A DNA stretch of 64,000 nucleotides from a virus: positions 62,520 through 126,519 of IMG/VR virus record IMGVR_UViG_3300031951_000037; one strand, written 5' to 3'. Below, in pieces: positions 28,720 to 53,523 of this stretch (positions are counted from its first letter, which is position 1; each line of letters starts with the position of its first letter). The notes beneath the pieces were generated by a model, which saw only the letters and a program-made list of their open reading frames with translations, had not been told where the DNA came from and made no database searches. The position numbers were made by a program, and so were the translations under genes.

Positions 28720-31700
28720 ATGCTTAGAGACGTATTCTATTTTGGTAAAAAGCCCAACGTTCATCCTAGAGAACAGTTTGCAGAGAATCTACAAGATGCT
28801 AGACTAAAAGCCACTACTCGTGACTTTTGGATCATTAATGAGTTCTCTGACTATCGCAATTTTGATTGGGACTTTGATTTTGAATTTTTGCCTGACGAAG
28901 ACGTTTGGGCAGAAGATCACAATAACGTATGGCCTAGTCAGCATCAAAAGGACAGTGGCACATGGTTGTGTCCCAAGGAACATAGTGATGTTATTGTCTA
29001 TCGCAATGATGTAGATCCGGTCATTCGTAAAAACGAAAAGACCGACCAATGGGTCGAGCTTGATTTAATCAACTATAGTAAGTTTGACTTTAGTTGGCAT
29101 CCTGACCCAACTGATCCTCCCTATATCTATAAGTGGGGTTGTAAGTTCTTCCCAACAGAAATCAAGCATGTATTAGAGTATCGTGTTCCTGGCGCTACTC
29201 AAGAAAAGTATATGAACACGATTGCAGAGTTAGTACCTGAATATGATCGTTGGGTAGAACATCAGGCAATTGACAAAGATAGATTTGATATGTCATGGAG
29301 ACCAAATCCATTGGATCCACCATTCATCTATGTTTGGGGTAACAAGTATGTTGACGGAAGACTACAGCCCACACTTGAATATCATGCTCCGAACGCAACT
29401 GATATAAAATATCTATCAGAACTTGTCCCTGTTTTACCTGAACAAGATAGATGGACTATTCTTGAGGATATTGTAAAAGATTCATTTGACTTTAGCTGGC
29501 GTCCTGACCCAAGAGAACCAGCATTCATTTATGTATTTGGTAACGAACAATACGATGGCACAATCATGCCTACACTTGAATATCGTTGCCCTAATGCTAC
29601 AGAAATTAAGTATGTCAATGATATTACGGCTAAATTAGCTCCCAAGAAGGAATTGTTTGAGCATTTAGAAGACAGTTATGGTATTGATTATAGCTGGCGC
29701 CCTAATCCTACAAGTCCTCCCTATATCTATGCATGGGGTAATCAATGGAATAGTCCAGAAGAAAAGATATCTATTCAGTTTGTCGTTCCAGGAGCCACAG
29801 AATACAAATATATGACAGAGCGTGCTATTCGCAAGCCATGCATGGATAATTGGGTAGTCCCTGATGATGTTGACGCTACTGGATTTGATTTTAGTTGGGA
29901 GCCAAACCCCACGGCACCCCCGTACATTTATGAGTTCGCAACACAATGGCAGAAGACCGGCGGCCCTCAGTACGTAGTACCGGGAGCTACGGAGAAACAG
30001 TATGTGGATTTTCAAAGAGTTAAAAGACTTCCTACAAACAAAGGTTGGGCGATTCCTAACAATATTGATATTGATAGATTTGATTTTTCATGGCATCCAG
30101 ATAGTTCTAGTCCTCCTTATGTTTATGTATTTTCTACTCAGTGGGCATTCAGCGGCGGACCTGTATATACAGTTGATGGAGCAACTGAGGTCAAGTATGT
30201 AGAAGATCAGGTTGCTACTGCAATCGTAGATATGAATAATTGGGTATATGATGCTACTGAGATTGATGTAGACAGCTTTGATTTTAGCTGGCATCCACAT
30301 GCAGAAGATCAGCCATATATCTACCAGTTCGGTACTCAATGGCAGAAGACAGGTGGTCCTAAATATATTACTTCGGGCGCTGATAATTCAAGCCCGGTAA
30401 AATATGTAGATACTCGTATTATAAAAGCAATGCGCTTATCCAACCCACATGATTACTATTGGGTAGAAAATTATCCCATTAAAGACTTTGATTACTCATG
30501 GCACCCAGACGATACCGAAGAGCCATATATCTATGTATTTGGTAACAAGCAGTATCCTGCCGAAGAGTGTCCTACTATTGAATATAGAATGGAAGGCGCA
30601 ACTCAGGTAAAATACATTCATGATATCGTAGCTACGTTAGATGTAGATATGACTAACTGGGTAATTCATGAACCAATTGATGAAGACAGTTTTGACTTTA
30701 GTTGGGTACCTAATCCAACTGACCAGCCTTATATCTATGTTTTCGGTAACCAACGTTATTCGGGTGAGATTTATCCCACTGTAGAATATCGTACTCCTAA
30801 TGCGACAGAAAAGAAATATGTCAGTGATGTAACCGCTAAACTTAAAGTTGACAAGTCTAAGTTTACTTTATTATATCCAATAAACGAAGATAAGTTTGAT
30901 TTTAGATGGAGACCTAACCCAATGTCTCCTCCCTATATCTATATCTTCGGTAACCAATATTACTCAGCAGAAGAAATGCCCACTGTAGAATATCGGGTAG
31001 ATGGTGCTACCGAAATAAAATATGTGAAAAATATTACTGCACATTTGAAGTCCAACATGACAAATTGGGAAGTTCCTAGTAACATTGACGTTTCAAGTTT
31101 TGATTTTAGCTGGGTGCCTCATCCCAAAAGTCCTCCCTACATCTATGAGTTTGCAACGGTGTGGAATGACAGGGGCGGACCTAGGTATATCGTCAAAGGG
31201 GCAACAGAATACAAGTACATTGAAGAAATTAAAGCTAAAACATTACCTGATAAAACCAATTGGGACATTCCGAATAATATTGATATTTCAAGTTTTGATT
31301 TTAGCTGGGTTCCTCATCCCAATTCCCCTCCATACATATATGAGTTTGGGACACAATGGAATGACAGGGGAGGACCTGTTTACCGAATGCCTGGTGCAAC
31401 GGAATACAAATACATTGATACTGTAAAGGCAAATACTCTTCCAAGCCGAGTCAACTGGGAAATACCAGACGGGGTAGATGTTAGACGATTTGATTTTAGT
31501 TGGGCACCACATCCGATGGCCCCGCCCTACATCTATCAGTTTGGTACTAAGCTAGATAACAACGACGGTCCTAGATATGTCACGCCTAGCAACAACGGAG
31601 AGATTGTATATCTTGAGCGGGTAGAACTTTTAGGTTCATCTGATATTAGTGTGGGTCAATATTATATTGAAACCAGCTTGGAAGAGTTAATCAATAAGCA

Positions 31701-33672
31701 TCCAAAAGAAATCTTTTGGGCAATGCGAAAGAACATTGACTATTCACACTTTGATTTTAGCTGGCGCCCAACTACTGTGGAAGTTGCCTATGAACTAGAT
31801 TATGTTCATGTTTTTGGTTCTCCTGAATCAGAACTAACACAGACATATTTTGTGAGCGCAGAGCATTATCTAAAAGGTAACACCGAGTTTAAGTTTGTAG
31901 AAGATTTAAAACTAAATGAAGATACTTTGGCTAAACTATTCAAGAAGCCTGATATGTTCTTTATTGACAGAAGCAATAGTGAATCACAAGAGCGGTTTGA
32001 GAAGCTTAAAGAACGTTTCCCTGGCATTCAAAAGACTCGCTATCTTAATAGCTGGGTTGATACTATCAATCGCTGCACTAAGAAAGCAAGCACTGAATTG
32101 ATTTGGGTTCTTAATAGTGAACTAGACTATAGCGACTTTAACTTTGATTACTATCCTAATCCTTGGCAGATGAAGATGGTTCAAGTGTTTGGTACTCAGT
32201 GGAGCCATTGGGGAACAACGTTCATGGTTAACTGCGAAACATTCCCCGAAGATACCAGGTATGTCAAGATTATTGAACATCTATCCAACTTGAACTTTGT
32301 GAAGGATATTCGTACTAAGGCAACACAGTGCGTCCATGATATTGTAGTTATTGACCATGCTAACAAGGAAACAAGTGATGTAGTGTCATTTTTGCAGAGT
32401 AAGGTATCTGACAACACGATTACGGTAATTCCTTATCAAGAGAGCTACCTAGAAACCTTCAAGGAAATTATTAGTAAGCAGCAAGAAAAGAAGGATCATT
32501 ACATTTGGATTTGCTCAAGTGTATGTGACTATACGAACTTTGATTTCTCATATGTGTGTGATCCGTTTGCAAGAGACCAGCTACATGTTTTCCCAAGTGG
32601 AACGCAGAAGTTCGGTGATACTTTCTTCGTAGATGTTAACAAGGCTAGAGAAGTTATCAGTGATCTAGAACTACTAGAAAGCTTCAATAAGGTAAACTAC
32701 AACATGACTATTAGGGCAGAAAGATTGCCCGAACCAGTGATTGTTGTTAATGATGACACGCATTCTACTGCTATTAATAAGATTATTGATTTCCCATACG
32801 CAACACTAGTTACCTATGATAACACTGATGTACCTAAGGTTGATATTGAGCCGATGAATCTTTGGTCTAGCGATACTAAGAATATCTATGTTACTAGTAC
32901 TGGTGCAACTCGTATTGTTGTGCCTGTCGAAGCTAAGGACTATGTTAAGAAAGAATTGTATGAATATCCATACATTAAGCGTGCTCCTAAGTTAGCAACT
33001 TCTAAGCCATTAGATATCGTATACCTAAGTAACGGCGAAACAGGTGCCGACGAAAACTATCAATACTTGTTAGATGTTACTAAGGATCTCCCCAATAGAG
33101 TTGTTAGGGTAGATGGAATTAACGGTCGTGTTGCTGCTTATCATGCAGCAGCAGAGGCTAGCGAAACGACTTGGATGTTCACGGTCTTTGCTAAGCTTAA
33201 AGTCAACCCTAAGTTTGATTGGAACTGGCAACCCGATAGAATGCAGGCTCCTAAGCATTATATTTTCTATGCAAAGAATCCAGTTAACGGATTAACCTAC
33301 GGTCACCAAGCAATGATCGCATATAACAAGAAGCTCACACTTGCTAATGAAGGCAAAGGTCTTGATTTTACATTGGATGACGAGCATGAAGTAGTGCCAT
33401 TGATTTCAGGAACAGCAAACTACAATACTGACGAGTTCTCAACGTGGCGCACTGCATTTAGAGAAGTTATCAAGCTTAAAGCGGATTCTGATGATATAGC
33501 CAAATATCGCCTTGATGCCTGGCTTACTAAAGGGGAAGGTAATTTCGCAGAGTACAGCATTAAGGGTGCGTTAGATGCAGAAAAATACTATGATGATGTT
33601 GGCGGTGACTTTGACATGATCAAATTAAGCTATGAATGGGATTGGCTGCGAAACAAGTTTAATGAAATGTGA
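28720..33672 (+). CDS. 1650-aa repeat protein with C-terminal glycosyltransferase-like domain
   Basis: 13 canonical and ~4 degenerate repeats of ~65 aa (FDFSWxPxxxxPPYIYxFG); C-terminal LSNGE...RVDGINGRVAAYHAAA...TWRTAFRE domain like 15609..16559. Confidence 0.7.
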   Translation: MLRDVFYFGKKPNVHPREQFAENLQDARLKATTRDFWIINEFSDYRNFDWDFDFEFLPDEDVWAEDHNNVWPSQHQKDSGTWLCPKEHSDVIVYRNDVDPVIRKNEKTDQWVELDLINYSKFDFSWHPDPTDPPYIYKWGCKFFPTEIKHVLEYRVPGATQEKYMNTIAELVPEYDRWVEHQAIDKDRFDMSWRPNPLDPPFIYVWGNKYVDGRLQPTLEYHAPNATDIKYLSELVPVLPEQDRWTILEDIVKDSFDFSWRPDPREPAFIYVFGNEQYDGTIMPTLEYRCPNATEIKYVNDITAKLAPKKELFEHLEDSYGIDYSWRPNPTSPPYIYAWGNQWNSPEEKISIQFVVPGATEYKYMTERAIRKPCMDNWVVPDDVDATGFDFSWEPNPTAPPYIYEFATQWQKTGGPQYVVPGATEKQYVDFQRVKRLPTNKGWAIPNNIDIDRFDFSWHPDSSSPPYVYVFSTQWAFSGGPVYTVDGATEVKYVEDQVATAIVDMNNWVYDATEIDVDSFDFSWHPHAEDQPYIYQFGTQWQKTGGPKYITSGADNSSPVKYVDTRIIKAMRLSNPHDYYWVENYPIKDFDYSWHPDDTEEPYIYVFGNKQYPAEECPTIEYRMEGATQVKYIHDIVATLDVDMTNWVIHEPIDEDSFDFSWVPNPTDQPYIYVFGNQRYSGEIYPTVEYRTPNATEKKYVSDVTAKLKVDKSKFTLLYPINEDKFDFRWRPNPMSPPYIYIFGNQYYSAEEMPTVEYRVDGATEIKYVKNITAHLKSNMTNWEVPSNIDVSSFDFSWVPHPKSPPYIYEFATVWNDRGGPRYIVKGATEYKYIEEIKAKTLPDKTNWDIPNNIDISSFDFSWVPHPNSPPYIYEFGTQWNDRGGPVYRMPGATEYKYIDTVKANTLPSRVNWEIPDGVDVRRFDFSWAPHPMAPPYIYQFGTKLDNNDGPRYVTPSNNGEIVYLERVELLGSSDISVGQYYIETSLEELINKHPKEIFWAMRKNIDYSHFDFSWRPTTVEVAYELDYVHVFGSPESELTQTYFVSAEHYLKGNTEFKFVEDLKLNEDTLAKLFKKPDMFFIDRSNSESQERFEKLKERFPGIQKTRYLNSWVDTINRCTKKASTELIWVLNSELDYSDFNFDYYPNPWQMKMVQVFGTQWSHWGTTFMVNCETFPEDTRYVKIIEHLSNLNFVKDIRTKATQCVHDIVVIDHANKETSDVVSFLQSKVSDNTITVIPYQESYLETFKEIISKQQEKKDHYIWICSSVCDYTNFDFSYVCDPFARDQLHVFPSGTQKFGDTFFVDVNKAREVISDLELLESFNKVNYNMTIRAERLPEPVIVVNDDTHSTAINKIIDFPYATLVTYDNTDVPKVDIEPMNLWSSDTKNIYVTSTGATRIVVPVEAKDYVKKELYEYPYIKRAPKLATSKPLDIVYLSNGETGADENYQYLLDVTKDLPNRVVRVDGINGRVAAYHAAAEASETTWMFTVFAKLKVNPKFDWNWQPDRMQAPKHYIFYAKNPVNGLTYGHQAMIAYNKKLTLANEGKGLDFTLDDEHEVVPLISGTANYNTDEFSTWRTAFREVIKLKADSDDIAKYRLDAWLTKGEGNFAEYSIKGALDAEKYYDDVGGDFDMIKLSYEWDWLRNKFNEM

Positions 33673-34298: not shown

Positions 34299-34466
34299 AT
34301 GGTAGTCTGTAGTTGTAGAAACATTAGAGACTCGCAATACACTAGCAGAGAAGAACTATCTGCCCGCATTTTACAAGACGATTATTGTTGTGGTACATGC
34401 TTAGACGAGTTTTTACCAAACGACAACAAAAAGATTGACACGAACCCCCAACTAGTATATAAATAG
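34299..34466 (+). CDS. Bfd-like [2Fe-2S] ferredoxin (55 aa)
   Basis: MVVCSCRNIRD...CCGTC resembles the Bfd pattern (MxVCxC...CGxC). Confidence 0.55.
   Translation: MVVCSCRNIRDSQYTSREELSARILQDDYCCGTCLDEFLPNDNKKIDTNPQLVYK
34435..34465 (+). promoter_or_regulatory. Composite promoter of the tmRNA gene
   Basis: TTGACA-N17-TATAAA; the -10 element is also a perfect T4 late TATAAATA (34458-34465). Confidence 0.75.
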
Positions 34467-34469
34467 ATT

Positions 34470-34826
34470 ATCAGTTGTTTGATGCAATCTGATGTTTGTG
34501 CAGGACCCGGGGGCGGTACCCGGCGCCTCCACCATTAACACACTTGCCTGACTCCTCCGGTTTTTGGGAGGTAAGTTGGGACCGAACTTCACTAGAGGTC
34601 GTTCTACAGTGCCTTGAGGCATGAGGATACTAACAGAAACGAGTGTGTTAATGATGGGGGCGAAATTTAGGATCGACTGCAAGGCAGAGGTGAGAGTAGA
34701 CTGATTGGTTGGCCGCATATAAGCCAAAACTGTAAATGTCGCAGCTAATGACAACAATGTGGATCTTGCCCTAGCGGCATGATTCTACGGGGTCCGGGAG
34801 TACCTTGCAACAGAAACTCCCAACCA
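34470..34826 (+). ncRNA. ssrA: Circularly permuted (two-piece) tmRNA, alphaproteobacterial type (outer ends approximate)
   Basis: Acceptor piece ends with T-arm CCGGG-GGCGGTA-CCCGG and CGCCTCC-ACCA (CCA at 34532-34534). Coding piece starts GGGGGCG at 34656 and forms the acceptor stem with the G3:U70 Ala determinant. Tag frame 34741-34782 = AANDNNVDLALAA*. 3' motif GGGAGTACCTTGCAACAGAAACTCCC. Confidence 0.95.
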
Positions 34827-34837
34827 TACTAACTATC

Positions 34838-34844
34838 ATAAATA
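34838..34844 (+). promoter_or_regulatory. Late promoter motif ATAAATA
   Basis: 4 nt upstream of ATG 34849; no SD. Confidence 0.6.
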
Positions 34845-34848
34845 CAGT

Positions 34849-37800
34849 ATGGACATTAATGAATTGGAATCCTTTAAATTAAGCGATGCTGTAACTTTCC
34901 ACAAGGAATTGAACCCTAAGTTGTGGGAAGATAATACACTTGATCCAGAAGTGCGTGATCAATTACTATTGATTGCCGAAGACTTTGTAGAATATCTAGG
35001 CATCAGCAATCTTAAAGTTAGAGACGTTACTATCTCAGGTAGTAACGCTGCCTATTCATATACTCCTCACAGTGACTTAGACTTGCACATATTGGTAGAC
35101 TTCAATGAACTACCAAACAACGAAGTGTACCAAGAACTGTTCACTGCTAAGAAAACATTATATAACGATGCCCACGACATTACGGTGCGTGATGTTCCCG
35201 TAGAACTATATGTGCAGGATACAAATCAGCCTCATGTTAGTTTAGGTGAGTACAGCATTGTCTATGACAAGTGGATTCGCATTCCTAAAAAGCGTAGAGC
35301 AAACTTTGACGAAGCTGCAACCAAAGCAAAGTATGAGAAGCTTGGTGACCTTATTGAGTTGGCATTGAAGTCACGAGATCCAAAAAGAGTCAACGATACC
35401 CTCGCACTAATCAAACGTTATCGCAAGAGCGGACTGGAGAAAGCTGGCGAGTTTGGTCCTGAGAATCTAGCATTCAAAGCAATCAGAAAGCAGGGACTGA
35501 TTCAAGACCTACATGACCTCAAAGCACAATTACACGCTGAAAAGTTAAGCATTGACGAATATGCTAACGAAGATTATGATCCAAATGGTCCGCCCCCTGG
35601 ACCCGAGTTTAAGCCTACGATGCCTGCAGGTACTGTCAGAGTAGACGTTAGTGATGTATACGATTGGTACAAGCTAGGTCAACATATCAGCAATATGAAG
35701 GGTTTGGGTAAGCACGATTTCGGTAAAGGTCCTCCCAGCACTATTTTGTCATTCGGTGATGAAGATACCGAACACAAATATATTCAAGATTTAGAAAAGA
35801 CTGGATTGACTACGACTGATATTGATCCAGTTGACCCCAAGCAACCAAAAGGTATGAAGCGTCAAAAAACTGACCCTACATTTAATGTCAATGAGACAGA
35901 CGATAGAAAAGCAGCAGTACTTAAGATTCAGAAACACTTGAATAAGAAGTATGGTGCCAACCTTGACCTTGACGGTAAACTAGGTCCGTTGACTCTTAAA
36001 TCAATCAACAAGTTTATGCCTAGAGCAAAAACTGGATTAGCTGATGAGCCTAACAAGACAACAGCAGTGCAGGGTAAGAAGCTGAAAGAAGCAAAGATTG
36101 ATGCCCATCGTCAGGGTGATACTATTTGGATCAACTACTTTGAGGTTCCTGAGAAAGGTAAAGGACTTGGTACTCAAGAATATATGAAGTTTGAAAAGAG
36201 CCTTCCTAAAGACATAAAGAAGATTCGTTTAGTAGCAAGTGATGCCGGATATGGTCCTACTCACGAGTTTTGGGACAGAATGGGATTTGACTATGCTTAT
36301 CCAGATGATGATAATGAAATGGTTAAGCTGCTAGAAGCCGTCAAGTTCAAAGTACAAAAGGGCAAGAATAAATTCTCTACTGAATTATTAGTAAGCGGTG
36401 AACCTGTTGGTATATATCAATACGATGCTACTACTGGACGCAGTATTGCCGAAATTTATCCTGAGTTTAAGGGCAAGGGTTTAGGTAAACTATTAGTCTT
36501 ACACGCTATCTATACCGCTGCACAATTAGGTCTTGATTTTATAGAAGATGATTCACGAACCGCAGAATATGATAACGTATTAGATAGCCTAAGCAGCAAT
36601 GGTTATATAGTAGATGATGATGGATATTGGTATGTCACAGGTGACGGAGAACAATATCTGAAACAATCATTAAAAGAAGCCCACCTGGTAGAAACCGCAG
36701 AGGAAAATCAAATTATCAATGCAGTTTCTAGAGCAGCCGCTGATAAAATTGTCGAGTTCATGCAAGCGAATGAAAGCAAGATATTGGATATGTTATTGGT
36801 AGGCATGACTCCCAAAACTCGTCTAATATTATTTGGTTTAAAACCAAAAGACCTAAATGTTCCCTCAGTGAAAGACCCGCTACTCAATAAATTATTAAAA
36901 ACTATGAAAATTAAAGTCAGTACCTATAAGAATTGGAAAAACGAAAAAGATACAAAGATTTATGGAGAATACTATGAGGGTGATAACAGTATTTTACTTT
37001 ATTTCCCGGCTCATGAACTTGCTGCTAAAATACGAGGAACAACCATTCAATCCGAGGTTGCCAGTACATTATCACATGAAATTCAACATGCGCTTGACGA
37101 TTTAAAAAGTCAGGGCAAGGCACTAGCAGATCCTATATTATACAAAGGAATGAGTAACGATTATCAATCATATCTTAAAAGACCATATGAAGTGAATGCT
37201 AGATTCCAACAAGCAACTATGGACATAGCAGAATATGTAGCTATGCCAAAGAAAGATGGTAGCAAGGCTACACAGAAAGATTTGCCGGAACTAATTCGTT
37301 ACGCATTTGAAAAAAATCAATTAGATAAAATCTACGAGAAAAATCAAAAAGAATATAAGAGATTATTGTCTCGTGCTTATAAGTTCTTCCAAGCTGAAAT
37401 GAATGCTCCTAAGAAAGCAACTCCTCAAAATATAGTGAGTAGAGCAGTCAATTGGATAATGGGTAATTCCACAAAAGAAATTAATGAGGCTTCCGGATAC
37501 ATTCCAAGCGAAAAAGAGAAGAATGATCCTCGCTTCAAGACTGCACTGACTGTAGACGTTAAGCCAGACTCAATCAAGAAGAATGCTAAGGCGTTCAACT
37601 GGAAAACCTCACGAGCAGGCATCCCTCCCCAAGCACGAGCAGATGGTAAGCTTGCGGAAGACCTAATGAGAGAGTTTAAAAGTTTTTTACTTGAAGATAA
37701 GCAGCCCAAAGTAGGTTATCACGTTACTGCTACAAAAAACTTACCAGTCATACGTAAGAACGGAATCAAAGCAGATAGCAGAGGCAATAGCTATGTTTGG

Positions 37801-38013
37801 GATTCGTTTGAAATGGCTGAATGGTTCACCGACTTTCAGAACGATGAGGGTCAAGATAGAACGATATTGAAAATAGATATGACAGGCATTGATGCCCGCC
37901 CCGATCCAGAAGCCGAAGACATGAGCGAATGGTCAAGTAGATTTAAGCCCGGCACGAACGGCGGCGCTTGGATAGTAACAGGTTCTATTCCACCGGACAA
38001 AATCATAGGTTGA
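34849..38013 (+). CDS. Polyvalent protein: Pol-beta nucleotidyltransferase, unknown domain, PG-binding-like, 2x GNAT, zincin, ART-like
   Basis: SGS...DLDLH; IQKHLN...DGKLGPLT; KGKGLGT...FWDRMGF; FKGKGLGK; HEIQH; YHVT...SYVW. Confidence 0.75.
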   Translation: MDINELESFKLSDAVTFHKELNPKLWEDNTLDPEVRDQLLLIAEDFVEYLGISNLKVRDVTISGSNAAYSYTPHSDLDLHILVDFNELPNNEVYQELFTAKKTLYNDAHDITVRDVPVELYVQDTNQPHVSLGEYSIVYDKWIRIPKKRRANFDEAATKAKYEKLGDLIELALKSRDPKRVNDTLALIKRYRKSGLEKAGEFGPENLAFKAIRKQGLIQDLHDLKAQLHAEKLSIDEYANEDYDPNGPPPGPEFKPTMPAGTVRVDVSDVYDWYKLGQHISNMKGLGKHDFGKGPPSTILSFGDEDTEHKYIQDLEKTGLTTTDIDPVDPKQPKGMKRQKTDPTFNVNETDDRKAAVLKIQKHLNKKYGANLDLDGKLGPLTLKSINKFMPRAKTGLADEPNKTTAVQGKKLKEAKIDAHRQGDTIWINYFEVPEKGKGLGTQEYMKFEKSLPKDIKKIRLVASDAGYGPTHEFWDRMGFDYAYPDDDNEMVKLLEAVKFKVQKGKNKFSTELLVSGEPVGIYQYDATTGRSIAEIYPEFKGKGLGKLLVLHAIYTAAQLGLDFIEDDSRTAEYDNVLDSLSSNGYIVDDDGYWYVTGDGEQYLKQSLKEAHLVETAEENQIINAVSRAAADKIVEFMQANESKILDMLLVGMTPKTRLILFGLKPKDLNVPSVKDPLLNKLLKTMKIKVSTYKNWKNEKDTKIYGEYYEGDNSILLYFPAHELAAKIRGTTIQSEVASTLSHEIQHALDDLKSQGKALADPILYKGMSNDYQSYLKRPYEVNARFQQATMDIAEYVAMPKKDGSKATQKDLPELIRYAFEKNQLDKIYEKNQKEYKRLLSRAYKFFQAEMNAPKKATPQNIVSRAVNWIMGNSTKEINEASGYIPSEKEKNDPRFKTALTVDVKPDSIKKNAKAFNWKTSRAGIPPQARADGKLAEDLMREFKSFLLEDKQPKVGYHVTATKNLPVIRKNGIKADSRGNSYVWDSFEMAEWFTDFQNDEGQDRTILKIDMTGIDARPDPEAEDMSEWSSRFKPGTNGGAWIVTGSIPPDKIIG

Positions 38014-38437: not shown

Positions 38438-39538
38438 ATGTCTCAAATGTCCGATAATCTCACTATCACTTCTATTCAGGCCCGTAAGGCTATTCTCGCT
38501 GCGTTCAAGGCAAAGCGCCCTGTCTTCCTCTGGGGCCCTCCGGGTATTGGTAAGTCTGAATGCGTTCAGGAAATCACTGACGAACTCGGTGGCTACATGG
38601 TTGATCTTCGCATGGCGCAGATGGAACCGACTGACATTCGCGGTATCCCCTACTTCAACAAGGAAATCGGCAAGATGGATTGGGCCGAACCTGTTGATCT
38701 TCCCAGCGAAGAACTTGCCGCACAGTATCCGATCGTCGTTCTTTTCCTTGACGAAATGAACTCCGCTCCCCCTGCTGTTCAGGCTGCTGGTTATCAGCTT
38801 ATTCTGAACCGTCGTGTTGGTAAGTACAAGCTGCCTGATAACGTTGTTATCGTTGCTGCTGGTAACCGCGATAGCGACAAGGGTGTTACGTATCGTATGC
38901 CGATGCCGCTTGCTAACCGTTTCGTTCACCTTGAAATGCGTCCTGACTTCAACTCTTGGCAGCAGTGGGCTGTTAACAAGGGCGTTCACAAGGACGTTGT
39001 TGGTTATCTCTCGTTCGCTAAGCAGGATATGTACGACTTTGATGCTAAGGCTTCGTCTCGCGCCTTCGCTACCCCGCGTTCGTGGGTGTTCGTGAGTGAC
39101 CTGCTCACTGACGAGGACAACGTTGATAACGATACGCTGTTCAATCTCGTTGCTGGTGCTGTCGGTGACGGTCTCGCTACCAAGTTCATGGCACATCGTC
39201 GTGTTGCTGGTCAGATGCCGAACCCCGCTGACATTCTTGATGGTAAGGTCAAGGACCTTAAGGTCAAGGAAATCTCTGCGATGTATTCGCTTACGATTTC
39301 TATGTGCTACGAACTTAAGGAAGCACTTGACAACAAGCGTGTTGATAACAAGCAGTTCCACGTGATGGCTGATAACTTCTTTGAATACATCATGAAGAAC
39401 TTCGAAACTGAACTGGTTGTGATGGGTGCTAAGATTGCGCTTAAGACGTACCGTCTGCCGATTGAGCCCTCGCAGCTTTCTAACTTTGACGAGTTCCACA
39501 AGAAGTACGGTAAGTACATCGTGGAAGCTGGCAACTAA
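38438..39538 (+). CDS. MoxR-type AAA+ ATPase
   Basis: SD AAGGAG; GPPGIGKS (Walker A), LFLDEMN (Walker B), AAGNR, PLANRF. Confidence 0.9.
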   Translation: MSQMSDNLTITSIQARKAILAAFKAKRPVFLWGPPGIGKSECVQEITDELGGYMVDLRMAQMEPTDIRGIPYFNKEIGKMDWAEPVDLPSEELAAQYPIVVLFLDEMNSAPPAVQAAGYQLILNRRVGKYKLPDNVVIVAAGNRDSDKGVTYRMPMPLANRFVHLEMRPDFNSWQQWAVNKGVHKDVVGYLSFAKQDMYDFDAKASSRAFATPRSWVFVSDLLTDEDNVDNDTLFNLVAGAVGDGLATKFMAHRRVAGQMPNPADILDGKVKDLKVKEISAMYSLTISMCYELKEALDNKRVDNKQFHVMADNFFEYIMKNFETELVVMGAKIALKTYRLPIEPSQLSNFDEFHKKYGKYIVEAGN

Positions 39539-39551
39539 GTCAGCAAGCTCC

Positions 39552-39585
39552 GGGGGAGGGTTTGAGACAGCCCTCCCCCATTTTT
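39552..39585 (+). terminator. Intrinsic terminator
   Basis: GGGGGAGGG / CCCTCCCCC 9-bp stem followed by ATTTTT. Confidence 0.8.
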
Positions 39586-39598
39586 CGTAGGTATTAAT

Positions 39599-39799
39599 AT
39601 GAGCATAGCCACTTGCGCGGTTTGCGGTGTCCAAGTAGAAAGAACACTTCATCAATTCCCTACCCGTAAGTATCCGCACAATGCTCCCTACCTTGCCGCT
39701 CTATATCACCGAGATCCTTTTTGGGGAAATGGTGATTTTGAAGAATATTGCGGCCCTAAATGCGCTACAGAGGCTTTCTTAAAAAGCAAACAAGTATAA
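39599..39799 (+). CDS. Small Zn-binding hypothetical protein
   Basis: CAVC...CGPKC. Confidence 0.5.
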   Translation: MSIATCAVCGVQVERTLHQFPTRKYPHNAPYLAALYHRDPFWGNGDFEEYCGPKCATEAFLKSKQV

Positions 39800-39808
39800 A
39801 GTTTTTGG

Positions 39809-39837
39809 TTGACAATACCGCTTAGGTTTGTTATATT
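39809..39837 (+). promoter_or_regulatory. Sigma70-like early promoter
   Basis: GGTTGACA-N17-TATATT. Confidence 0.7.
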
Positions 39838-39862
39838 GTCTATATCAACTAAGGAGATTTCT

Positions 39863-41167
39863 ATGAGTGACGTTATTCCCGGTACTGCGACTAAGCCTAA
39901 GAAGGGCAAGCGTACCCGCAGCAAGAAGTTTGAAAATCTGATCGGCCCGACCGATCCTAAGATTGATCACGAAGCCCGTGAGCGTCTTATTACCGCTCGT
40001 ATTGGTCTCCTGCTTCGTCAAAGCTTTTTCGGCAATCTCGCTACTCGTTTACAGCTTGTAAACGCTGACGAGTGGTGCTCCACTGCTGCTACTGACGGTC
40101 TGCGTTTCTACTACAACAGTCGTTTTATCAAGATGCTTCGCACTAAGGAAGTTGAATTCCTTGTCGGTCACGAGGTCCTTCACGTTGTTTACGATCACCT
40201 TGGTCGTCGTGACAGCCGCGACCCTGAAATTTGGAACATCGCTAACGACTATGCTGTTAACGCTGACCTCAAGCGTCACAAGGTCGGTGAAATGATCACT
40301 ACTGTTCCTGCTCTCTATGAGCAGAAGTATGATGGTCTTGCATCCGAAGTCATTTATGACGACCTCATGAAGAACGTCAAGTACATTGATATTGACGAAC
40401 TCCTCGACAAGATGCTTGACGATCACCTTGAAGATGAAGGTCAGGGCGAGGGTGACGGCGAAGATAATGGTCAGCAGGGTAATGGTAAGCGTCCGCGGAT
40501 GAGCCCTGAGGAACGTGAACAAGCCCGTCAGGAAATGAAGCAGGCTATTCTCAACGCTGCACAGACTGCCGAAGCTGGTACTATCCCGCTGGGCGTTGAA
40601 CGTCTTATCAAGCAGCTTACTGATCCTGTCATGCCCTGGCGTGAACTGATCCAGACTAATCTGACCTCTGCTATCAAGTCTGATTACACTTGGATGCGTC
40701 CTTCTCGTCGTTCTTGGCACATGGATGCTGTTATGCCTGGTATGAATCCTGGTGAAGAAATTGACGTTGATATCTACATTGACATGTCAGGTTCTATCAG
40801 CAACAAGCAGGGTATGCAGTTCCTTAGCGAAGTCGCTGGTATGATGGAAGCGTTTGATGGTTACTCGCTCCGTGTCACTTGCTTTGATACTCGCTGCTAC
40901 AACACGCAGGAGTATACTAGTGAGAACATGGAGAACATTGAGGAGTATCAGCTTCACGGTGGTGGCGGCACCGACTTTGATAGCATCTTTGATGACCTCA
41001 AGGAAGCTGGTCGTGTCCCCAATCGTTTGATCGTCTTCACTGACGGTTATCCGTGCGGTAGCTGGGGCGATGCTGATTATTGTGATACGACTTGGATCAT
41101 TCACGGTGACCCCAATCCGAACCCGCCCTTCGGTACGTATGCTATCTATGACGACCATAAGAAGTAA
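39863..41167 (+). CDS. Metallopeptidase-vWA protein (DUF2201 family), MoxR partner
   Basis: SD AAGGAG; TAATDG, HEVLH (HExxH); vWA MIDAS DMSGS, GGGGTDF, VFTDG. Confidence 0.88.
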   Translation: MSDVIPGTATKPKKGKRTRSKKFENLIGPTDPKIDHEARERLITARIGLLLRQSFFGNLATRLQLVNADEWCSTAATDGLRFYYNSRFIKMLRTKEVEFLVGHEVLHVVYDHLGRRDSRDPEIWNIANDYAVNADLKRHKVGEMITTVPALYEQKYDGLASEVIYDDLMKNVKYIDIDELLDKMLDDHLEDEGQGEGDGEDNGQQGNGKRPRMSPEEREQARQEMKQAILNAAQTAEAGTIPLGVERLIKQLTDPVMPWRELIQTNLTSAIKSDYTWMRPSRRSWHMDAVMPGMNPGEEIDVDIYIDMSGSISNKQGMQFLSEVAGMMEAFDGYSLRVTCFDTRCYNTQEYTSENMENIEEYQLHGGGGTDFDSIFDDLKEAGRVPNRLIVFTDGYPCGSWGDADYCDTTWIIHGDPNPNPPFGTYAIYDDHKK

Positions 41168-46034: not shown

Positions 46035-47085
46035 TAATCTTCAAGAGGAGTTGCTAGATGCAACTCACGAAGCCCTAAAAGAAGGGACATTAGTTAACGG
46101 ACCTTTCACGGCTTCTTTTGAATCTTGGCTTAGAGATTACACTGGATGTAAGTTTGCTACTGTTACTCACAGTGGTACTCAGGCGCTAGAATTCATCGCT
46201 GGCTATCACTACGATCTAAGCTTTTTGGCAGGGTATGATGACCCTCCTAAAATACGTATTCCTAATTTAACTTATCCAGCAACACTCAACGCTTTCTATA
46301 CGACTGGTTGGGAAATTGAATTAGTTGACACTGATAACAATGGATTGATCAAGGTTGACAGTTATGAAGATAACCTGGATACTCATACTTGTTTTGTAGG
46401 ACTATACGGCGCAACTGGAAATAGAGCATTCTATTCGCCTATAATCGTAGATGGTGCCCAGCACTGGCTATCTACTACTAAGGATCAAGTGGGTGATGGT
46501 ATGGCTATCAGCTTTGACCCAACTAAGAACTTGCCTAGCAGCGGCAATGGCGGCGCCGTAGTGACGAATGATGAAGCGTTGTATGATTGGGTAAACGTTA
46601 TGAAGAATAACGGCAAACCAGACCATTTCTACTCTGGATCAAACAGTAAGATGAGCGAACTAGAGTGCAGTCATTTGTTGGTAAGAGCAAAGTACATTGA
46701 TGCTTGGCAATTGCGTAGATATGATATTAGAAAATACTATTTGAAGCAGTTTGATGAGTTGCCAATCAAATGCTTAAGCCGCGGATTTCATGCGGGCCGC
46801 GGATTAAACTGTCACGCTGACCAAAAGTTCGTCATTTACACTAGTGATAGAAATGATTTGTTGAACTATCTACTAGACAATGGAATTGAAGCCAAAGTGC
46901 ATTACCCATACGCACTTTCTGAACTTCCTATATCAAAGGATATCGTCAGCAAGCCCGATCTTATTAGCACTAGCGTAGCATTATCTAGAGGATTGCTAAG
47001 TCTTCCTATCTATCCTGAACTATCAGATAGTGAAATTGAAACTATTGCAGATAAGGTAAAGGAATTTTATTCCAATCATAAATAA
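45988..47085 (+). CDS. DegT/DnrJ/EryC1/StrS PLP-dependent sugar aminotransferase
   Basis: HSGTQAL, DGAQ, SFDPTKNL (PLP Lys), NSKMSE, LSLPIYPEL. Confidence 0.92.
   Translation: MNTWLIPHFGLKRQYNNLQEELLDATHEALKEGTLVNGPFTASFESWLRDYTGCKFATVTHSGTQALEFIAGYHYDLSFLAGYDDPPKIRIPNLTYPATLNAFYTTGWEIELVDTDNNGLIKVDSYEDNLDTHTCFVGLYGATGNRAFYSPIIVDGAQHWLSTTKDQVGDGMAISFDPTKNLPSSGNGGAVVTNDEALYDWVNVMKNNGKPDHFYSGSNSKMSELECSHLLVRAKYIDAWQLRRYDIRKYYLKQFDELPIKCLSRGFHAGRGLNCHADQKFVIYTSDRNDLLNYLLDNGIEAKVHYPYALSELPISKDIVSKPDLISTSVALSRGLLSLPIYPELSDSEIETIADKVKEFYSNHK
47078..47084 (+). promoter_or_regulatory. Late promoter motif ATAAATA
   Basis: 5 nt upstream of ATG 47090; no SD. Confidence 0.6.
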
Positions 47086-47089
47086 TAGC

Positions 47090-47551
47090 ATGAACGTTTA
47101 TTGGCTAATTGCATTAATACCTACATGGGTTATCTTTACACTTCTTATTGCAGGCGCAGTAGGACTATTTGTCGCATTCTTTGTTGGTAGAATACCCTTT
47201 ATCAAGCAATATAATTTTCCAATCAAGCTAGTTTCCACTATTTTGCTAATCTGCGGCGTATACTTGCAAGGTGCCGCAGCATATAAACAAAGCGTAGCTG
47301 TTGAAGTAGCAGAACTCAAGGTTAAGCTGGCAGAAGCAGAAGCTAAGGGTGCAAAAACTAACACAGAAATCGTTGAAAAGATTGTTAAAGATACCCAGGT
47401 CATTCGTGAAAAAGGTAGAACAATCACTGAATATGTTGACAGAGAAGTTATCAAGTATAACAACAGATGTGAGCTTCCGGCAGAAGTAATCAATGCACAC
47501 AATGCAGCAGCTACATTAGATCCTAGCAAGCTTGAGGGAGAAAAGAAGTGA
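47090..47551 (+). CDS. Inner-membrane spanin (Rz-like)
   Basis: N-terminal TM helices then coiled coil; EVIKYNNRCELP; overlaps the downstream lipoprotein gene. Confidence 0.7.
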   Translation: MNVYWLIALIPTWVIFTLLIAGAVGLFVAFFVGRIPFIKQYNFPIKLVSTILLICGVYLQGAAAYKQSVAVEVAELKVKLAEAEAKGAKTNTEIVEKIVKDTQVIREKGRTITEYVDREVIKYNNRCELPAEVINAHNAAATLDPSKLEGEKK

Positions 47552-47866: not shown

Positions 47867-48406
47867 ATGGCTACACAACAAATCATCAATATCGGTACAT
47901 TACCTAATGATGGCGAAGGCGATCCGTTACGTGTAGCATTTAGCAAGATCAACAATAACTTCTCAAATCTATTTTCTACATTTGTTAATACTAGCTTGTC
48001 ATACAGTAGTGGCAATGTTGCTGGTCAAGTGATATTTGAAACTCCTGCCAACACATTCACTATGGGGGAAATGTTCGTTTATACCGCAGATTCTAGCACC
48101 AATGAGTCACAGACTATTCAATTGTTTGCACAACTCAATCAATCAGCAGATGACGTAAAGTTTACTGGCTATGGTAGTACATTTTTCGGAAATGCATTAT
48201 CTAGTTATGATATGGAAGTGTCAGATGGAAATGTAAAAATATTAGCTAATCCATTAACTGGCAACCTCTTATTTCACTTTATTGGCTCACAAAACATGTG
48301 GGTCGGACCAAACGTTCCAGGTATCCCGTTACAATTGGATGGATATATTGCTAATTCAATCATGTCAACTGAGGAAGACCAAGGCGTTACAACAGAGCAA
48401 CTATAA
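47867..48406 (+). CDS. Virion protein with T4 gp9/gp10-like N-terminal motif
   Basis: INIGTLPNDGEGDPLRVAFSKINNNF; late motif ATAAATA at 47837. Confidence 0.65.
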   Translation: MATQQIINIGTLPNDGEGDPLRVAFSKINNNFSNLFSTFVNTSLSYSSGNVAGQVIFETPANTFTMGEMFVYTADSSTNESQTIQLFAQLNQSADDVKFTGYGSTFFGNALSSYDMEVSDGNVKILANPLTGNLLFHFIGSQNMWVGPNVPGIPLQLDGYIANSIMSTEEDQGVTTEQL

Positions 48407-48795
48407 TGAGGGCACACGAATTCATCACCGAATCAGTTACAGATGGGTTAAACATGGTGGCCCATACTCTTCCTAGCACCTACATTATGCCTGACCTTAA
48501 GAATAATGACTTCTATGAATTATATCGCTTTGGTTTAGCTATTGCAGATGTTCGTGGAAGTAGCGGCAATGATGATGTTCAGAACGGATTCAAGCATGAG
48601 TTTGAAGCCGAAAGTATGTGGGGAGAGCATCAAGTAGTTGTTTCTTGGGACCCAAACATTGATCAAGTTCTTGACCAAGCGTTAAGTAAAGTTCACAAAA
48701 AAGGTAAAAAGTTAGTCAGTACTAAAACTAGTGACGAGATTCCTAGCACTAGTACTGGATCACCTTTGAAGCCTTTTAAAGGATATAAGCGATGA
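48406..48795 (+). CDS. Putative internal head protein, paralogue 1
   Basis: N-terminus MRAHEFITE; C-terminus SPLKPFKGYKR. Confidence 0.6.
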   Translation: MRAHEFITESVTDGLNMVAHTLPSTYIMPDLKNNDFYELYRFGLAIADVRGSSGNDDVQNGFKHEFEAESMWGEHQVVVSWDPNIDQVLDQALSKVHKKGKKLVSTKTSDEIPSTSTGSPLKPFKGYKR

Positions 48796-49166
48796 GAGCT
48801 TGGGAATTTATCACTGAAGGGAAGAAAGTTCCCGATTCCCCTGAACATCACGACGGTCCTATGACCGGGCTTCATAGATTTGCTGACAGCACCTACGACC
48901 GTTTTTATCTGTTAAATCGTGTAATGATGGCTGCTGCAAGCACAGACGGAAAAACGATCCCTGATATAGACAGCGATAGTTGGGCTTCTCGTTTTAACAT
49001 AGCACATCCCTACACAAAAGAAGAAGCGGATAAGTTAAAAATAGCATATAAAGCAGCAGGTGTCAGAAAGTTTGATGACATAACAAACGGAGATTTGTCC
49101 AGTACTGAACCAAAAGGCACTAATGATGCTAGCCCAATCAAGCCATTCAAAGGATATAAAAAGTGA
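48792..49166 (+). CDS. Putative internal head protein, paralogue 2
   Basis: N-terminus MRAWEFITE; C-terminus SPIKPFKGYKK. Confidence 0.6.
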   Translation: MRAWEFITEGKKVPDSPEHHDGPMTGLHRFADSTYDRFYLLNRVMMAAASTDGKTIPDIDSDSWASRFNIAHPYTKEEADKLKIAYKAAGVRKFDDITNGDLSSTEPKGTNDASPIKPFKGYKK

Positions 49167-49540
49167 GAGCTAGTGAATTCATCCATGAAAGCAAGGGTAA
49201 GGTGCCTAAAAGACACAATAATGCCCAGCCCGGTGCCTATAAGTTTATGGACAATGGCACGGATAGAACTTACCACTTGAATCAGATTATGAAAGCAGTA
49301 GCAATGGCGGATGGATCATCTACTAAGGCTCTTAAAATGGATGATGAAAGCTTTGTCGGTAAAAATAATCTTGCATACCCATATAGTGATTTAGAACATA
49401 ACATGATGCACCAAGCATTTAATACGGTATCTCCTACCCAAGCAAAAGCAATGATCAAGGGACGAGATAGCAGCGAGTTGGATTCTGTAAATAAGGTTAG
49501 CCCTGTTGCAAAAAGACCAAAAGATCACAGAAAAAAATAA
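49163..49540 (+). CDS. Putative internal head protein, paralogue 3
   Basis: GTG start; N-terminus MRASEFIHE; C-terminus SPVAKRPKDHRKK. Confidence 0.6.
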   Translation: MRASEFIHESKGKVPKRHNNAQPGAYKFMDNGTDRTYHLNQIMKAVAMADGSSTKALKMDDESFVGKNNLAYPYSDLEHNMMHQAFNTVSPTQAKAMIKGRDSSELDSVNKVSPVAKRPKDHRKK

Positions 49541-51939: not shown

Positions 51940-51957
51940 CACTAACTAAATAGTTCT

Positions 51958-53505
51958 ATGGCAAACACACCAACACTAATCAAGGATCCATACAAGAAAA
52001 CTGTATTCAAGAACCAAAAGGAACTTGGTGAGTTTATGAAGTGCTGCGACCCTGAAACGGGTTATCTATACTTCATGGATAACTTCTTCATGATTCAGCA
52101 TCCTACTAAAGGATCAATGAACTATCACCCTTGGCCATATCAAGAAAGACTAATTGACACATACCATCGCTATCGTTTCAGTATCAGTCTAATGCCTAGA
52201 CAGTCAGGTAAGTCAACATCGGCAGCAGGGTATTTGCTTTGGTACGCCATGTTCGTACCTGACTCTACTATTCTAATTGCAGCACACAAGTACACCGGTG
52301 CCCAAGAAATTATGCAGCGTATTCGTTATGCATATGAAAACTGCCCGGACCACATCAAAGCCGGGGTAACTACATACAACAAAGGCTCACTTGACTTTGA
52401 GAACGGTTCCCGTATCGTGTCTGCTACTACGACTGAAAACACAGGTCGTGGTATGTCTATCACACTACTATACCTTGACGAATTTGCGTTCGTTCGCCCC
52501 TCAATCGCACAAGAATTCTGGACTGCTATTACTCCTACGCTATCAACTGGTGGTAAAGCAATCATTACATCAACACCAAACAGCGACGAAGATCAATTCG
52601 CTCTTATCTGGAAGATGGCTAACAAGACCGAAGACGAGTTTGGTAACACAACTGAGTTAGGCGTCAACGGCTTTAGAGCCTACAGAGCATACTGGCACGA
52701 ACAGCCCGGCAGAGATGAGAAATGGGCTGCTGAGATGAAGGCTCAGTTAGGTGAAGACAGATTCAATCGTGAAATCGGTTGTGAGTTCATTATCGCAGAT
52801 GAAACACTTATCAATCCAAACACCTTAGTAATGCTTGAAGGCATTGAACCTATCAATAGATTAGGTCAGGTTCGCTGGTATAAACAGCCCGAAAAGGGTA
52901 GAATTTATGTAGTTGCACTTGATCCGTCATTGGGTACAGGCGGCGATCCGGCTGCTATTCAAGTATTTGACGCAAGCACTACTACACAGATCGGTGAATG
53001 GAAACACAATAAGACTGATATTCCTAGTCAGATTAAGTTACTTGCTGAGATTTGCAAATATATCTCAGAAATAACAAAAGAGCCAAATAGCATTTACTAC
53101 AGCATTGAAAATAATGGCGTAGGTGAGGCTGCGGTTGTTTCACTCAACGAGTATGGTGAGTCAAATATTCCTGGCATTTTTATATCTGAGAAGGGCAAAG
53201 GACGTAGAGGGTTCAACACTTCTAATAAGCCTAAGCTAGCTGCTTGCGCTAAGTTCAAAACACTGCTAGAATCAAAGAAGATGACCATACATAGTCGCTC
53301 TCTCATTAGCGAATTGAAAGCGTTTGTTGCCAGCGGCGGCAGTTACGCTGCTAAGATCGGAGACACAGATGACTTAGTAATGTCAACTCTCCTGGCAGTG
53401 CGTATGATGACACAGTTAGCAGACTTCCATGGCGATTTAGAAAGCCAAATTAGAGACCACGATGAAGTGATTGCACCGTTACCATTCTTTGCCGTCTTGG
53501 GCTAA
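51958..53505 (+). CDS. terL: Terminase large subunit (T4 gp17-like)
   Basis: PRQSGKST (Walker A), LYLDEFAF (Walker B), TSTPN, ALDPSLG, DDLVMS; CTAAATA at 51946, 5 nt before the ATG. Confidence 0.96.
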   Translation: MANTPTLIKDPYKKTVFKNQKELGEFMKCCDPETGYLYFMDNFFMIQHPTKGSMNYHPWPYQERLIDTYHRYRFSISLMPRQSGKSTSAAGYLLWYAMFVPDSTILIAAHKYTGAQEIMQRIRYAYENCPDHIKAGVTTYNKGSLDFENGSRIVSATTTENTGRGMSITLLYLDEFAFVRPSIAQEFWTAITPTLSTGGKAIITSTPNSDEDQFALIWKMANKTEDEFGNTTELGVNGFRAYRAYWHEQPGRDEKWAAEMKAQLGEDRFNREIGCEFIIADETLINPNTLVMLEGIEPINRLGQVRWYKQPEKGRIYVVALDPSLGTGGDPAAIQVFDASTTTQIGEWKHNKTDIPSQIKLLAEICKYISEITKEPNSIYYSIENNGVGEAAVVSLNEYGESNIPGIFISEKGKGRRGFNTSNKPKLAACAKFKTLLESKKMTIHSRSLISELKAFVASGGSYAAKIGDTDDLVMSTLLAVRMMTQLADFHGDLESQIRDHDEVIAPLPFFAVLG

Positions 53506-53523
53506 GTTGGCATAAATATTAAC

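Follow-up and report, generated by a model that had tools for sequence, protein, structure and literature searches.

The 64,000-nucleotide stretch of viral DNA analysed here (the window; positions 62,520 to 126,519 of IMG/VR record IMGVR_UViG_3300031951_000037) contains an open reading frame (ORF) at 34849..38013 (+) that begins MDINEL and encodes a protein of 1054 amino acids. This locus raises the question of why a phage would string many modules, several of them enzyme-like, along one polypeptide, with [ILV]-x-E motifs like the cleavage sites of a phage head protease at the joints. An interpretation made from the letters alone (the sequence-only reading) had identified this ORF and its start correctly and had viewed the product as a late-made, head-packaged polyprotein that is matured into injected enzymes. 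Every available computational test supported that view. We rely on the architecture of the protein family, the statistics of its junctions, the presence of the protease, the homology of its targeting leaders, and a conserved late-type motif, all of which are observed; from these we infer packaging, cleavage, injection, the targets of the enzymes, and their roles in host takeover or anti-defence. Overall, the polyprotein is probably co-assembled in the prohead and cut in trans at its junctions by the phage's Peptidase_S77, and its enzymes are then injected with the DNA.

Shuffled modules and their junctions

The polyprotein belongs to a large family, with 1465 homologues of 579-1845 aa and another 2036 that are shorter. 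The N-terminal ~237 aa, which have a Pol-beta nucleotidyltransferase (NTase) fold, are common to all of the homologues (55-97% identity), and a basic ~55-aa module that we call the ASGYIPS tail is present in nearly all of them (one copy in 119 of 120 relatives). The modules between the N-domain and the tail, and those after the tail, are freely shuffled. Across the family these include GNATs, PF18760 (ART-PolyVal), DUF5661, DUF6934, extra Pol-beta NTases, ParB_N, and Tpt1-like modules. In the window's protein, a Tpt1/ART-like module is placed after the tail. The polyprotein is a beads-on-a-string phage polyvalent protein in which the constant NTase-fold N-domain and the basic ASGYIPS tail flank exchangeable modules, and from their sequences the larger members of the family look like cassette insertions between these two elements.

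The suggestion that the protein is akin to phage polyvalent proteins turned out to be well founded. We place the family in this published class because it carries PF18760 ART-PolyVal (55-63 bits in relatives P0003, P0024, P0058, and P0087; the window's protein itself does not have PF18760). With eight or nine modules, the polyprotein also falls within the range of 2-15 effector or enzymatic domains on one polypeptide that defines the class. As for the signature domains, the NTase fold, GNAT-like modules, and a zincin-like module with HExxHxxD are in the window's protein and PF18760 is in its relatives. The minimal member of the family is ~290 aa (P0167, P0201, and P0208) and consists of the N-domain, an h-x-E motif (h, hydrophobic), and the ASGYIPS tail.

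The sequence-only reading had listed about half of the ORF's 20 [ILV]xE sites. The positions that it gave for IDE (35551), VNE (35887), LKE (36082), LLE (36328), LKE (36670), INE (37480), LAE (37651), and LLE (37687) are exact, while LVE is present but starts at 36685 rather than at 36693. The total of 20 compares with 14.6 ± 3.2 in shuffles of the same sequence (p = 0.075); this is not significant, and we therefore set the count aside as evidence. Placement was judged separately. We mapped module boundaries from homology breakpoints (that is, from shuffling), without reference to any motif. In comparison with 119 relatives, the breakpoints concentrate at residues 241, 349, 415, 497, 610, 876, and 952, and residue 935 is a frequent C-terminus among the relatives. 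Of the 11 major breakpoint clusters, seven are no more than 5 aa away from an [ILV]xE (expected 2.1, p ≈ 9e-4).

The sequence-only reading had been staked beforehand on enrichment of the motif at module boundaries in homologues, and enrichment was found in three samples but not for control motifs. When the relatives were compared all against all, [ILV]xE occurred within 6 aa of 348 of 517 unique junction windows, versus 106 ± 9 at random positions, and the stricter [ILV]xE[AGS] occurred in 179 versus 29. In a shorter and more divergent set, the motif was found at 163 of 283 junction windows (versus 52.5 ± 6.2) and the [AGS] variant at 93 (versus 11.2). The controls [ILV]xD, [ILV]xK, and [ILV]xQ were at or below background at the junctions. 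Also, among 134 tail-containing representatives (at 50% identity), 116 have [ILVMF]xE directly ahead of the ASGYIPS tail, in 55 different tetrapeptides. Thus, when module content is compared among relatives, the points where it is shuffled coincide with [ILV]-x-E.

The conservation of individual sites, which we examined in relatives at ≤90% identity, fits the same picture. The junction logo has L, I, or V at P3, anything at P2, E at P1, and A > D, S, T at P1'. Junction and internal sites differ clearly in this respect. At the ten junction sites, 57-97% of relatives retain the motif, and as many as 16 different residues occur at P2. The internal sites fall into two kinds: those retained in 6-33% of relatives, and those retained with one fixed P2 (LGE, IAE, LWE), which to judge from the alignments reflect ordinary structural constraint. 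Apparent compensation is seen too: where LSIEE/ after module 1 has become LSIEN (a slash marks the predicted cut), it is followed at once by V-N-E, I-Q-E, V-T-E, or V-L-E. Conserved P3 and P1 residues around a free P2 are, as a sequence pattern, the signature of a recognition site. The junctions match the L/I-x-E motif of prohead-protease substrates in being exposed and free at P2, with V also accepted at P3.

The strongest alternative is that the protein works uncut as a multi-enzyme, either packaged or in the cytoplasm, and that [ILV]-x-E-A marks linkers or recombination joints that serve folding and swapping. Some polyvalent proteins are delivered at full length (N4 vRNAP, ArdC, and TraC1; PMC5512222), the cleavage of this polyprotein is predicted from its sequence, and the sites fall in predicted unstructured linkers, as any linker would. 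However, a pure linker needs no invariant Glu and aliphatic P3 around a free middle residue, nor would it restore the motif through compensatory changes. The variation at P2 and in the codons speaks against a recombination signal at the DNA level. The linker explanation also leaves unexplained that the same motif terminates the leaders found on stand-alone relatives and on the internal proteins of T4 (described below). We consider an uncut protein unlikely.

The head protease, targeting leaders and virion relatives

In T4, gp21 cuts after L/I-X-E, and it strips targeting leaders of 10-19 aa from internal proteins and removes both ends of Alt (PMC9026906). The sequence-only reading took a protease of this type for granted, and the genome bears it out. 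The IMG/VR fragment measures 126.5 kb (36% complete according to CheckV); the window makes up its second half, and the other half contains a head block: a portal, a Peptidase_S77 protease, a gp22-like scaffold, and a gp23-type capsid protein. The protease gene (G000:C1:23183-23821 (-), 212 aa, 99.5 bits) is in the same genome as the polyprotein gene; its product is 32% identical to T4 gp21 and keeps the GExxHP and GVSSRG blocks. The scaffold (369 aa) contains 24 [ILV]xE motifs, or 6.5 per 100 aa, as compared to 7.4 for T4 gp22 and about 1.5-2 for ordinary proteins here. The capsid protein (326 bits) has L-A-E/S immediately ahead of its conserved core. The premise of a T4-type protease holds because the phage encodes a gp21-type protease, a site-dense scaffold, and a gp23-type capsid protein. 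(On two related contigs we did not find Peptidase_S77, which is uninformative as these are 29-34% complete fragments.) A terminase gene is encoded as well, and other contigs that bear relatives of the polyprotein are 333-347 kb; the source is a giant T4-like phage. Between the portal and protease genes, outside the window, there is a 77-aa ORF (G000:C1:24778-25011 (-)) that starts MQLLE/M; its product may, by its sequence, be a core protein resembling gp67/gp68, with a protease site at the N-terminus.

Support that goes beyond the sequence-only reading comes from stand-alone modules with leaders like the capsid targeting sequences of T4, two of which are virion proteins of phage PA5oct. Stand-alone relatives of the zincin module measure 193-275 aa, or 383 and 443 aa in the longer cases, and almost all of them start with some 6-16 residues of leader ending in h-x-E, such as MRLHEFVLNE/D, MLINEVVLNE/D, or MRAHEFLSE/TAEENQ. 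The leader Glu is invariant in our alignment of the module (A2), and it lines up with an internal site of the polyprotein, AHLVE/TAEENQ. Small proteins made of the tail or of the ART-like module start alike (MRANEFINE/ASGYIPS, MKIYEIINE/ASGYIPN, MRAKEFITE/S, and MRINEIVE/V). We compared these to T4 starts, namely MKTYQEFIAE/A (the internal proteins IPII and IPIII), MAKINE/LLRE/S (gp24), and MELITE/LFDE (Alt). The IP-type leader occurs on the stand-alone relatives of modules, and a remnant of it, AHLVE, is located inside the polyprotein. The polyprotein's own start, MDINE/L, resembles those of gp24 and Alt but is just 5 aa; among relatives it varies as MATIQE/L, MDITE/L, or MNLKE/L, again with a free P2.

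In PA5oct, EST35_0380 and EST35_0381 are adjacent genes that are annotated as structural from electrospray tandem mass spectrometry (ESI-MS/MS; PMC7318152; MK797984). EST35_0380 is related to the zincin module (25% identity, E = 3e-6). The two proteins start with VRLNEINLIE/T and MKILEFNLTE/K, and PA5oct encodes Peptidase_S77. Among known phages more generally, megablast of the polyprotein region gave no match, tblastn gave matches to the N-domain and the zincin module only, and the tail module alone had no match in isolated phages.

No paralogues of any of the modules were found elsewhere in the 126-kb fragment. The window does contain three tandem paralogous genes at 48406-49540 (+), which encode proteins of 129, 124, and 125 aa that start MRAHEFITE/S, MRAWEFITE/G, and MRASEFIHE/S. 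None of the three has a significant match in Pfam. Judging by these starts, they are likely to be internal head proteins, much like the three internal proteins of T4.

A second alternative is that the embedded zincin module (residues 616-880) processes the chain itself, before, during, or after packaging, and that the prohead protease is not involved. For polyvalent proteins, Iyer, Burroughs, Anand, de Souza, and Aravind (2017) proposed processing via embedded zincins or, rarely, via a fused assemblin-like peptidase; zincin peptidases are the commonest hub domain of these proteins, and DdrB of P1 is processed (PMC5512222). The zincin module considered here has an invariant HExxHxxD...E and matches an IrrE profile. 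However, any HExxH is present in only 27 of 120 relatives, yet all of them keep the junction sites. With 93 of 120 members lacking HExxH, we rejected self-processing by the zincin as a general mechanism. Furthermore, a cut after Glu, with a hydrophobic residue at P3, is what characterises gp21/S77, and the stand-alone zincin relatives themselves resemble substrates in that an hxE leader precedes the module. Self-processing is, in our judgement, quite improbable. A shade less probable still is that another protease cuts the protein and thereby activates it after injection, either a host enzyme or the VWA/metallopeptidase with its MoxR ATPase (38438-41167): Iyer et al. did consider cleavage after injection (PMC5512222), and the MoxR-like ATPase and HExxH-bearing VWA genes adjoin the polyprotein gene downstream, but the match to gp21 specificity, the site density of the scaffold, and the IP-like leaders tie the motif to the head protease, no link was found between the MoxR/VWA pair and the polyprotein or its motif, and in PA5oct, which has S77, relatives are present in virions.

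Cleavage in trans in the prohead is best supported because most members do not have HExxH, because the sites fit the head protease, and because the zincin looks like a substrate. (In the literature that we searched, we found no statement that a head protease cleaves polyvalent proteins in trans.) We propose that the gene is most likely transcribed late and that the polyprotein would be co-assembled into the prohead core. Each junction carries [ILV]-x-E/(A/S/D/T), and the gp21-type Peptidase_S77 would cut after the junction Glu. The result would be some eight individual proteins (6-30 kDa) in equimolar quantity, which would be retained in the head until they pass into the host together with the DNA. 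If every junction were cut, the computed products would be 26.7, 12.5, 7.2, 9.6, 12.7, 30.3, 6.2, and 11.7 kDa plus three small peptides.

Several points weigh against this proposal. As to the motif, the total number of [ILV]xE in the ORF is not beyond chance, and about 13-40% of junction windows do not have a strict [ILV]xE. The relatives are not phylogenetically independent, and the z-scores overstate significance. The conserved internal LGE (residues 132-134) and LIE (168-170) would need to remain uncut, like most such sites in T4 gp23. The N-terminal MDINE of the polyprotein is not an IP-type leader; the N-domain, the MDINE end, or the basic tail may be what determines packaging. The specificity of the phage's S77 protease is assumed by analogy with T4. 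The AlphaFold2 (AF2) model of the full-length protein is poor (mean confidence, pLDDT, of 47), and structural boundaries were confirmed for modules 1 and 6 only. Finally, the cleavage and packaging of the protein are predictions from sequence.

Modules, upstream motif and neighbouring genes

The modules that the sequence-only reading had named are mostly borne out: the NTase fold and the short ASGYIPS module stand, the zincin call has an invariant motif and a profile match behind it, the GNAT call for residues 497-610 and the PG-binding and ART assignments are sub-threshold, and the GNAT call for residues 415-496 is motif-based. The chain begins with the pentapeptide MDINE (34849..34863 (+)), a candidate propeptide that would be removed at I-N-E/L. 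It is disordered in the AF2 model; 96.8% of relatives keep the motif, with 10 different P2 residues.

Module 1 (residues 6-237; 34864..35559 (+)) ends in I-D-E and matches phrog_36119 (1.9e-42). It has the Pol-beta motif G[GS]-x(9-13)-D-x-[DE] as GS...DLD within an alpha-beta fold; the motif reads GSNAAYSYTPHSDLD, in which S65, D76, and D78 are invariant. Its AF2 pLDDT is mostly 60-86 across residues 20-230. The best Foldseek matches are AAD(9) (6xz0; E = 1e-3, probability 0.93), AadA, and CdnE, and the match to Pfam NTP_transf_2 is weak (E = 0.11). Module 2 (residues 238-349; 35560..35895 (+)) is an independent shuffling unit, rich in Pro and Gly, that ends in V-N-E; it had no match in Pfam, PDB, or the Atlas. 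We dismissed caspase-4-like matches to it (E of about 0.3) as chance.

Module 3 (residues 350-414; 35896..36090 (+)) ends in L-K-E/A and is basic, with an isoelectric point (pI) of 10. We call it PG-binding-like from sub-threshold profiles (PG_binding_3, E = 0.021; PG_binding_1, E = 0.06) and from the JGI names of relatives. Module 4 (residues 415-496; 36091..36336 (+)), which ends in L-L-E/A, is a putative small GNAT by its GKGLG motif and had no match in Pfam. It shuffles independently, with residues 410-496 found at the C-terminus of P0081 and P0091. Module 5 (residues 497-610; 36337..36678 (+)) ends in L-K-E/A and resembles GNAT acetyltransferases; its match to Acetyltransf_1 is sub-threshold (E = 0.004, 17.8 bits; the cutoff is 20.7). 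It is another independent unit (residues 498-610 are found in P0089, P0093, and P0098).

The AHLVE pentapeptide (36679..36693 (+); L-V-E/T) aligns to MRAHEFLSE/TAEENQ and is the leader remnant of the zincin module. Its motif is kept by 93.8% of relatives, with 9 different P2 residues. Module 6 itself (residues 616-880; 36694..37488 (+)) is a zincin-like metallohydrolase with HEIQHALDD that ends in I-N-E/A. In alignment A2, H, E, Q, H, A, L, and D are invariant, followed by E, N, A, and R. This HExxHxxD...E is the phage-type metallopeptidase (MPTase) pattern of Iyer et al. (PMC5512222). A profile search matched IrrE (3dte, E = 3e-4), a PDB search with the single sequence gave no match, and the AF2 pLDDT is 79.6. 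Foldseek gave weak matches (E >= 0.25) to selecase, YbeY, and collagenase, and a wide structural search was filled by generic helical bundles that match the module's helical half.

Module 7 (residues 881-937; 37489..37659 (+)) is the ASGYIPS tail, with a pI of 9.8, and is the second constant element of the family. It is found in 468 representative clusters, mostly at the exact C-terminus, and had no profile match. It is followed by a 12-residue spacer, DLMREFKSFLLE, between L-A-E/ and L-L-E/ (37660..37695 (+)), near a predicted helix at residues 935-948; both bounding sites keep the motif in 86-89% of relatives. Module 9 (residues 950-1054; 37696..38010 (+)) has a putative Tpt1/KptA-like ART fold, with weak matches to the Tpt1 structures 8tfz and 8tfi (E of 0.04-0.07) and to PTS_2-RNA (PF01885, E = 0.23); the AF2 model gave no confident structure for it. 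The relative P0024 matches PF01885 at 2.4e-5.

The sequence-only reading had also given the gene a late promoter, and this needs to be restated. The canonical TATAAATA occurs once in the window (34458-34465), at the start of a transfer-messenger RNA (tmRNA) gene and not at the polyprotein gene, and we rejected it as the promoter of the latter. In its place we found a conserved late-type motif, NATAAATAC, that abuts the ATG. Specifically, the late-promoter-like 9-mer CATAAATAC (34837..34845 (+)) lies 3 nt ahead of the polyprotein's ATG, which has no Shine-Dalgarno sequence ahead of it. NATAAATAC plus 3 nt plus ATG is kept at 9 of the 11 loci with an orthologue, including ones whose more distal upstream sequence is unrelated, and at two loci (L011 and L014) the motif reads exactly TATAAATAC. 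The 9-mer also precedes the portal operon, and the geometry of ATAAATA or TAAATA-N4/5-ATG is also seen at the large terminase (51958), a virion structural protein (53524), and an Rz-like spanin (47090). In the window, (A)TAAATA-N4/5-ATG without a Shine-Dalgarno sequence spans 47078-47092 at the spanin, 51947-51960 at the terminase, 53512-53526 at the virion protein, and 34838-34851 at the polyprotein. The layout suggests late promoters so near to the start codon that the mRNAs may be leaderless or nearly so. Late expression of the polyprotein, perhaps from near-leaderless transcripts, is plausible.

As for the neighbours, a permuted two-piece tmRNA with tag VAANDNNVDLALAA is encoded directly upstream of the polyprotein gene, at 34431-34824 (+) (RF01849, 96.8 bits; RF04321, 73 bits). 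About 1.2 kb upstream is a 1650-aa protein (28720-33672 (+)) with ~17 FDFSWxP...PYIY repeats, and three small ORFs and the tmRNA lie between it and the polyprotein gene. Directly downstream, 38438-41167 (+) encodes a MoxR-like AAA ATPase (phrog_1297) and an HExxH-containing VWA protein (phrog_1314).

Implications and comparison with known systems

We see an even balance of probability for a broader claim: that a widespread uncultured clade of T4-like jumbo phages has a true capsid-internal polyprotein, in which a fixed frame holds fast-shuffling effector cassettes that are bounded by prohead-protease sites and are exchangeable with leader-bearing stand-alone genes. If so, a customisable and equimolar set of injected enzymes would be loaded in one packaging event and set free by the head protease, through a strategy of trans-processed polyproteins that was not previously described for tailed phages. 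Polyvalent proteins were defined by computation only. As to how they are processed, this family offers a concrete and testable answer: the head protease would cleave them in trans, at specified Glu residues, and exact boundaries and sizes are predicted for the fragments. It would link the classical T4 system of targeting leaders and gp21 to effector delivery in environmental jumbo phages, and the swapping of cassettes suggests a route by which phages may diversify injected anti-defence or takeover enzymes. It may also provide a natural design rule (a leader or frame, an h-x-E joint, and cargo) by which several foreign proteins could be packed into T4-like capsids.

Like the polyvalent proteins described by Iyer et al. 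(PMC5512222), the polyprotein carries many effector-type domains on one polypeptide (a Pol-beta NTase fold and putative GNAT, zincin MPTase, and ART domains). Its zincin-like module has an Asp three residues past HExxH, its relatives carry PF18760, its modules are shuffled to an extreme degree, and packaging and injection are predicted. Unlike those proteins, most members of this family do not have a peptidase and their joints carry sites for a separately encoded gp21-type protease; also, there is a fixed frame of N-terminal NTase domain and ASGYIPS tail.

As with IPI-III and Alt of T4 (PMC9026906), there is a T4-type protease, an L/I-x-E motif, and a late-type motif before the gene. The 10-aa M(K/R)xxxEF(I/V)xE leaders of three small genes in the window and of the modules' stand-alone relatives are like those of the T4 internal proteins, and, as in Alt, the enzymatic cargo would include an ART-fold domain (here a putative one), although without sequence homology to Alt's R-S-E ART. 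In contrast, the packaged proteins of T4 are encoded by separate genes and lose one or two terminal propeptides, whereas here there are up to eight cargo units per gene, with sites between them. The PA5oct proteins EST35_0380 and EST35_0381 also differ from the polyprotein in this respect, as they are stand-alone genes of 229-250 aa (PMC7318152).

In phiKZ, 201phi2-1, and SPN3US, similarly, many internal or ejection proteins are processed at short motifs by a diverged homologue of gp21 that cuts after Glu, and many ejected proteins are stored in the head (PMC10052503, PMC5694885). However, their motif is (S/A/G)-x-E, and the reported cuts remove N-terminal propeptides rather than releasing enzymes in series. 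The polyprotein family thus combines polyvalent proteins with the targeting-leader and gp21 system of T4.

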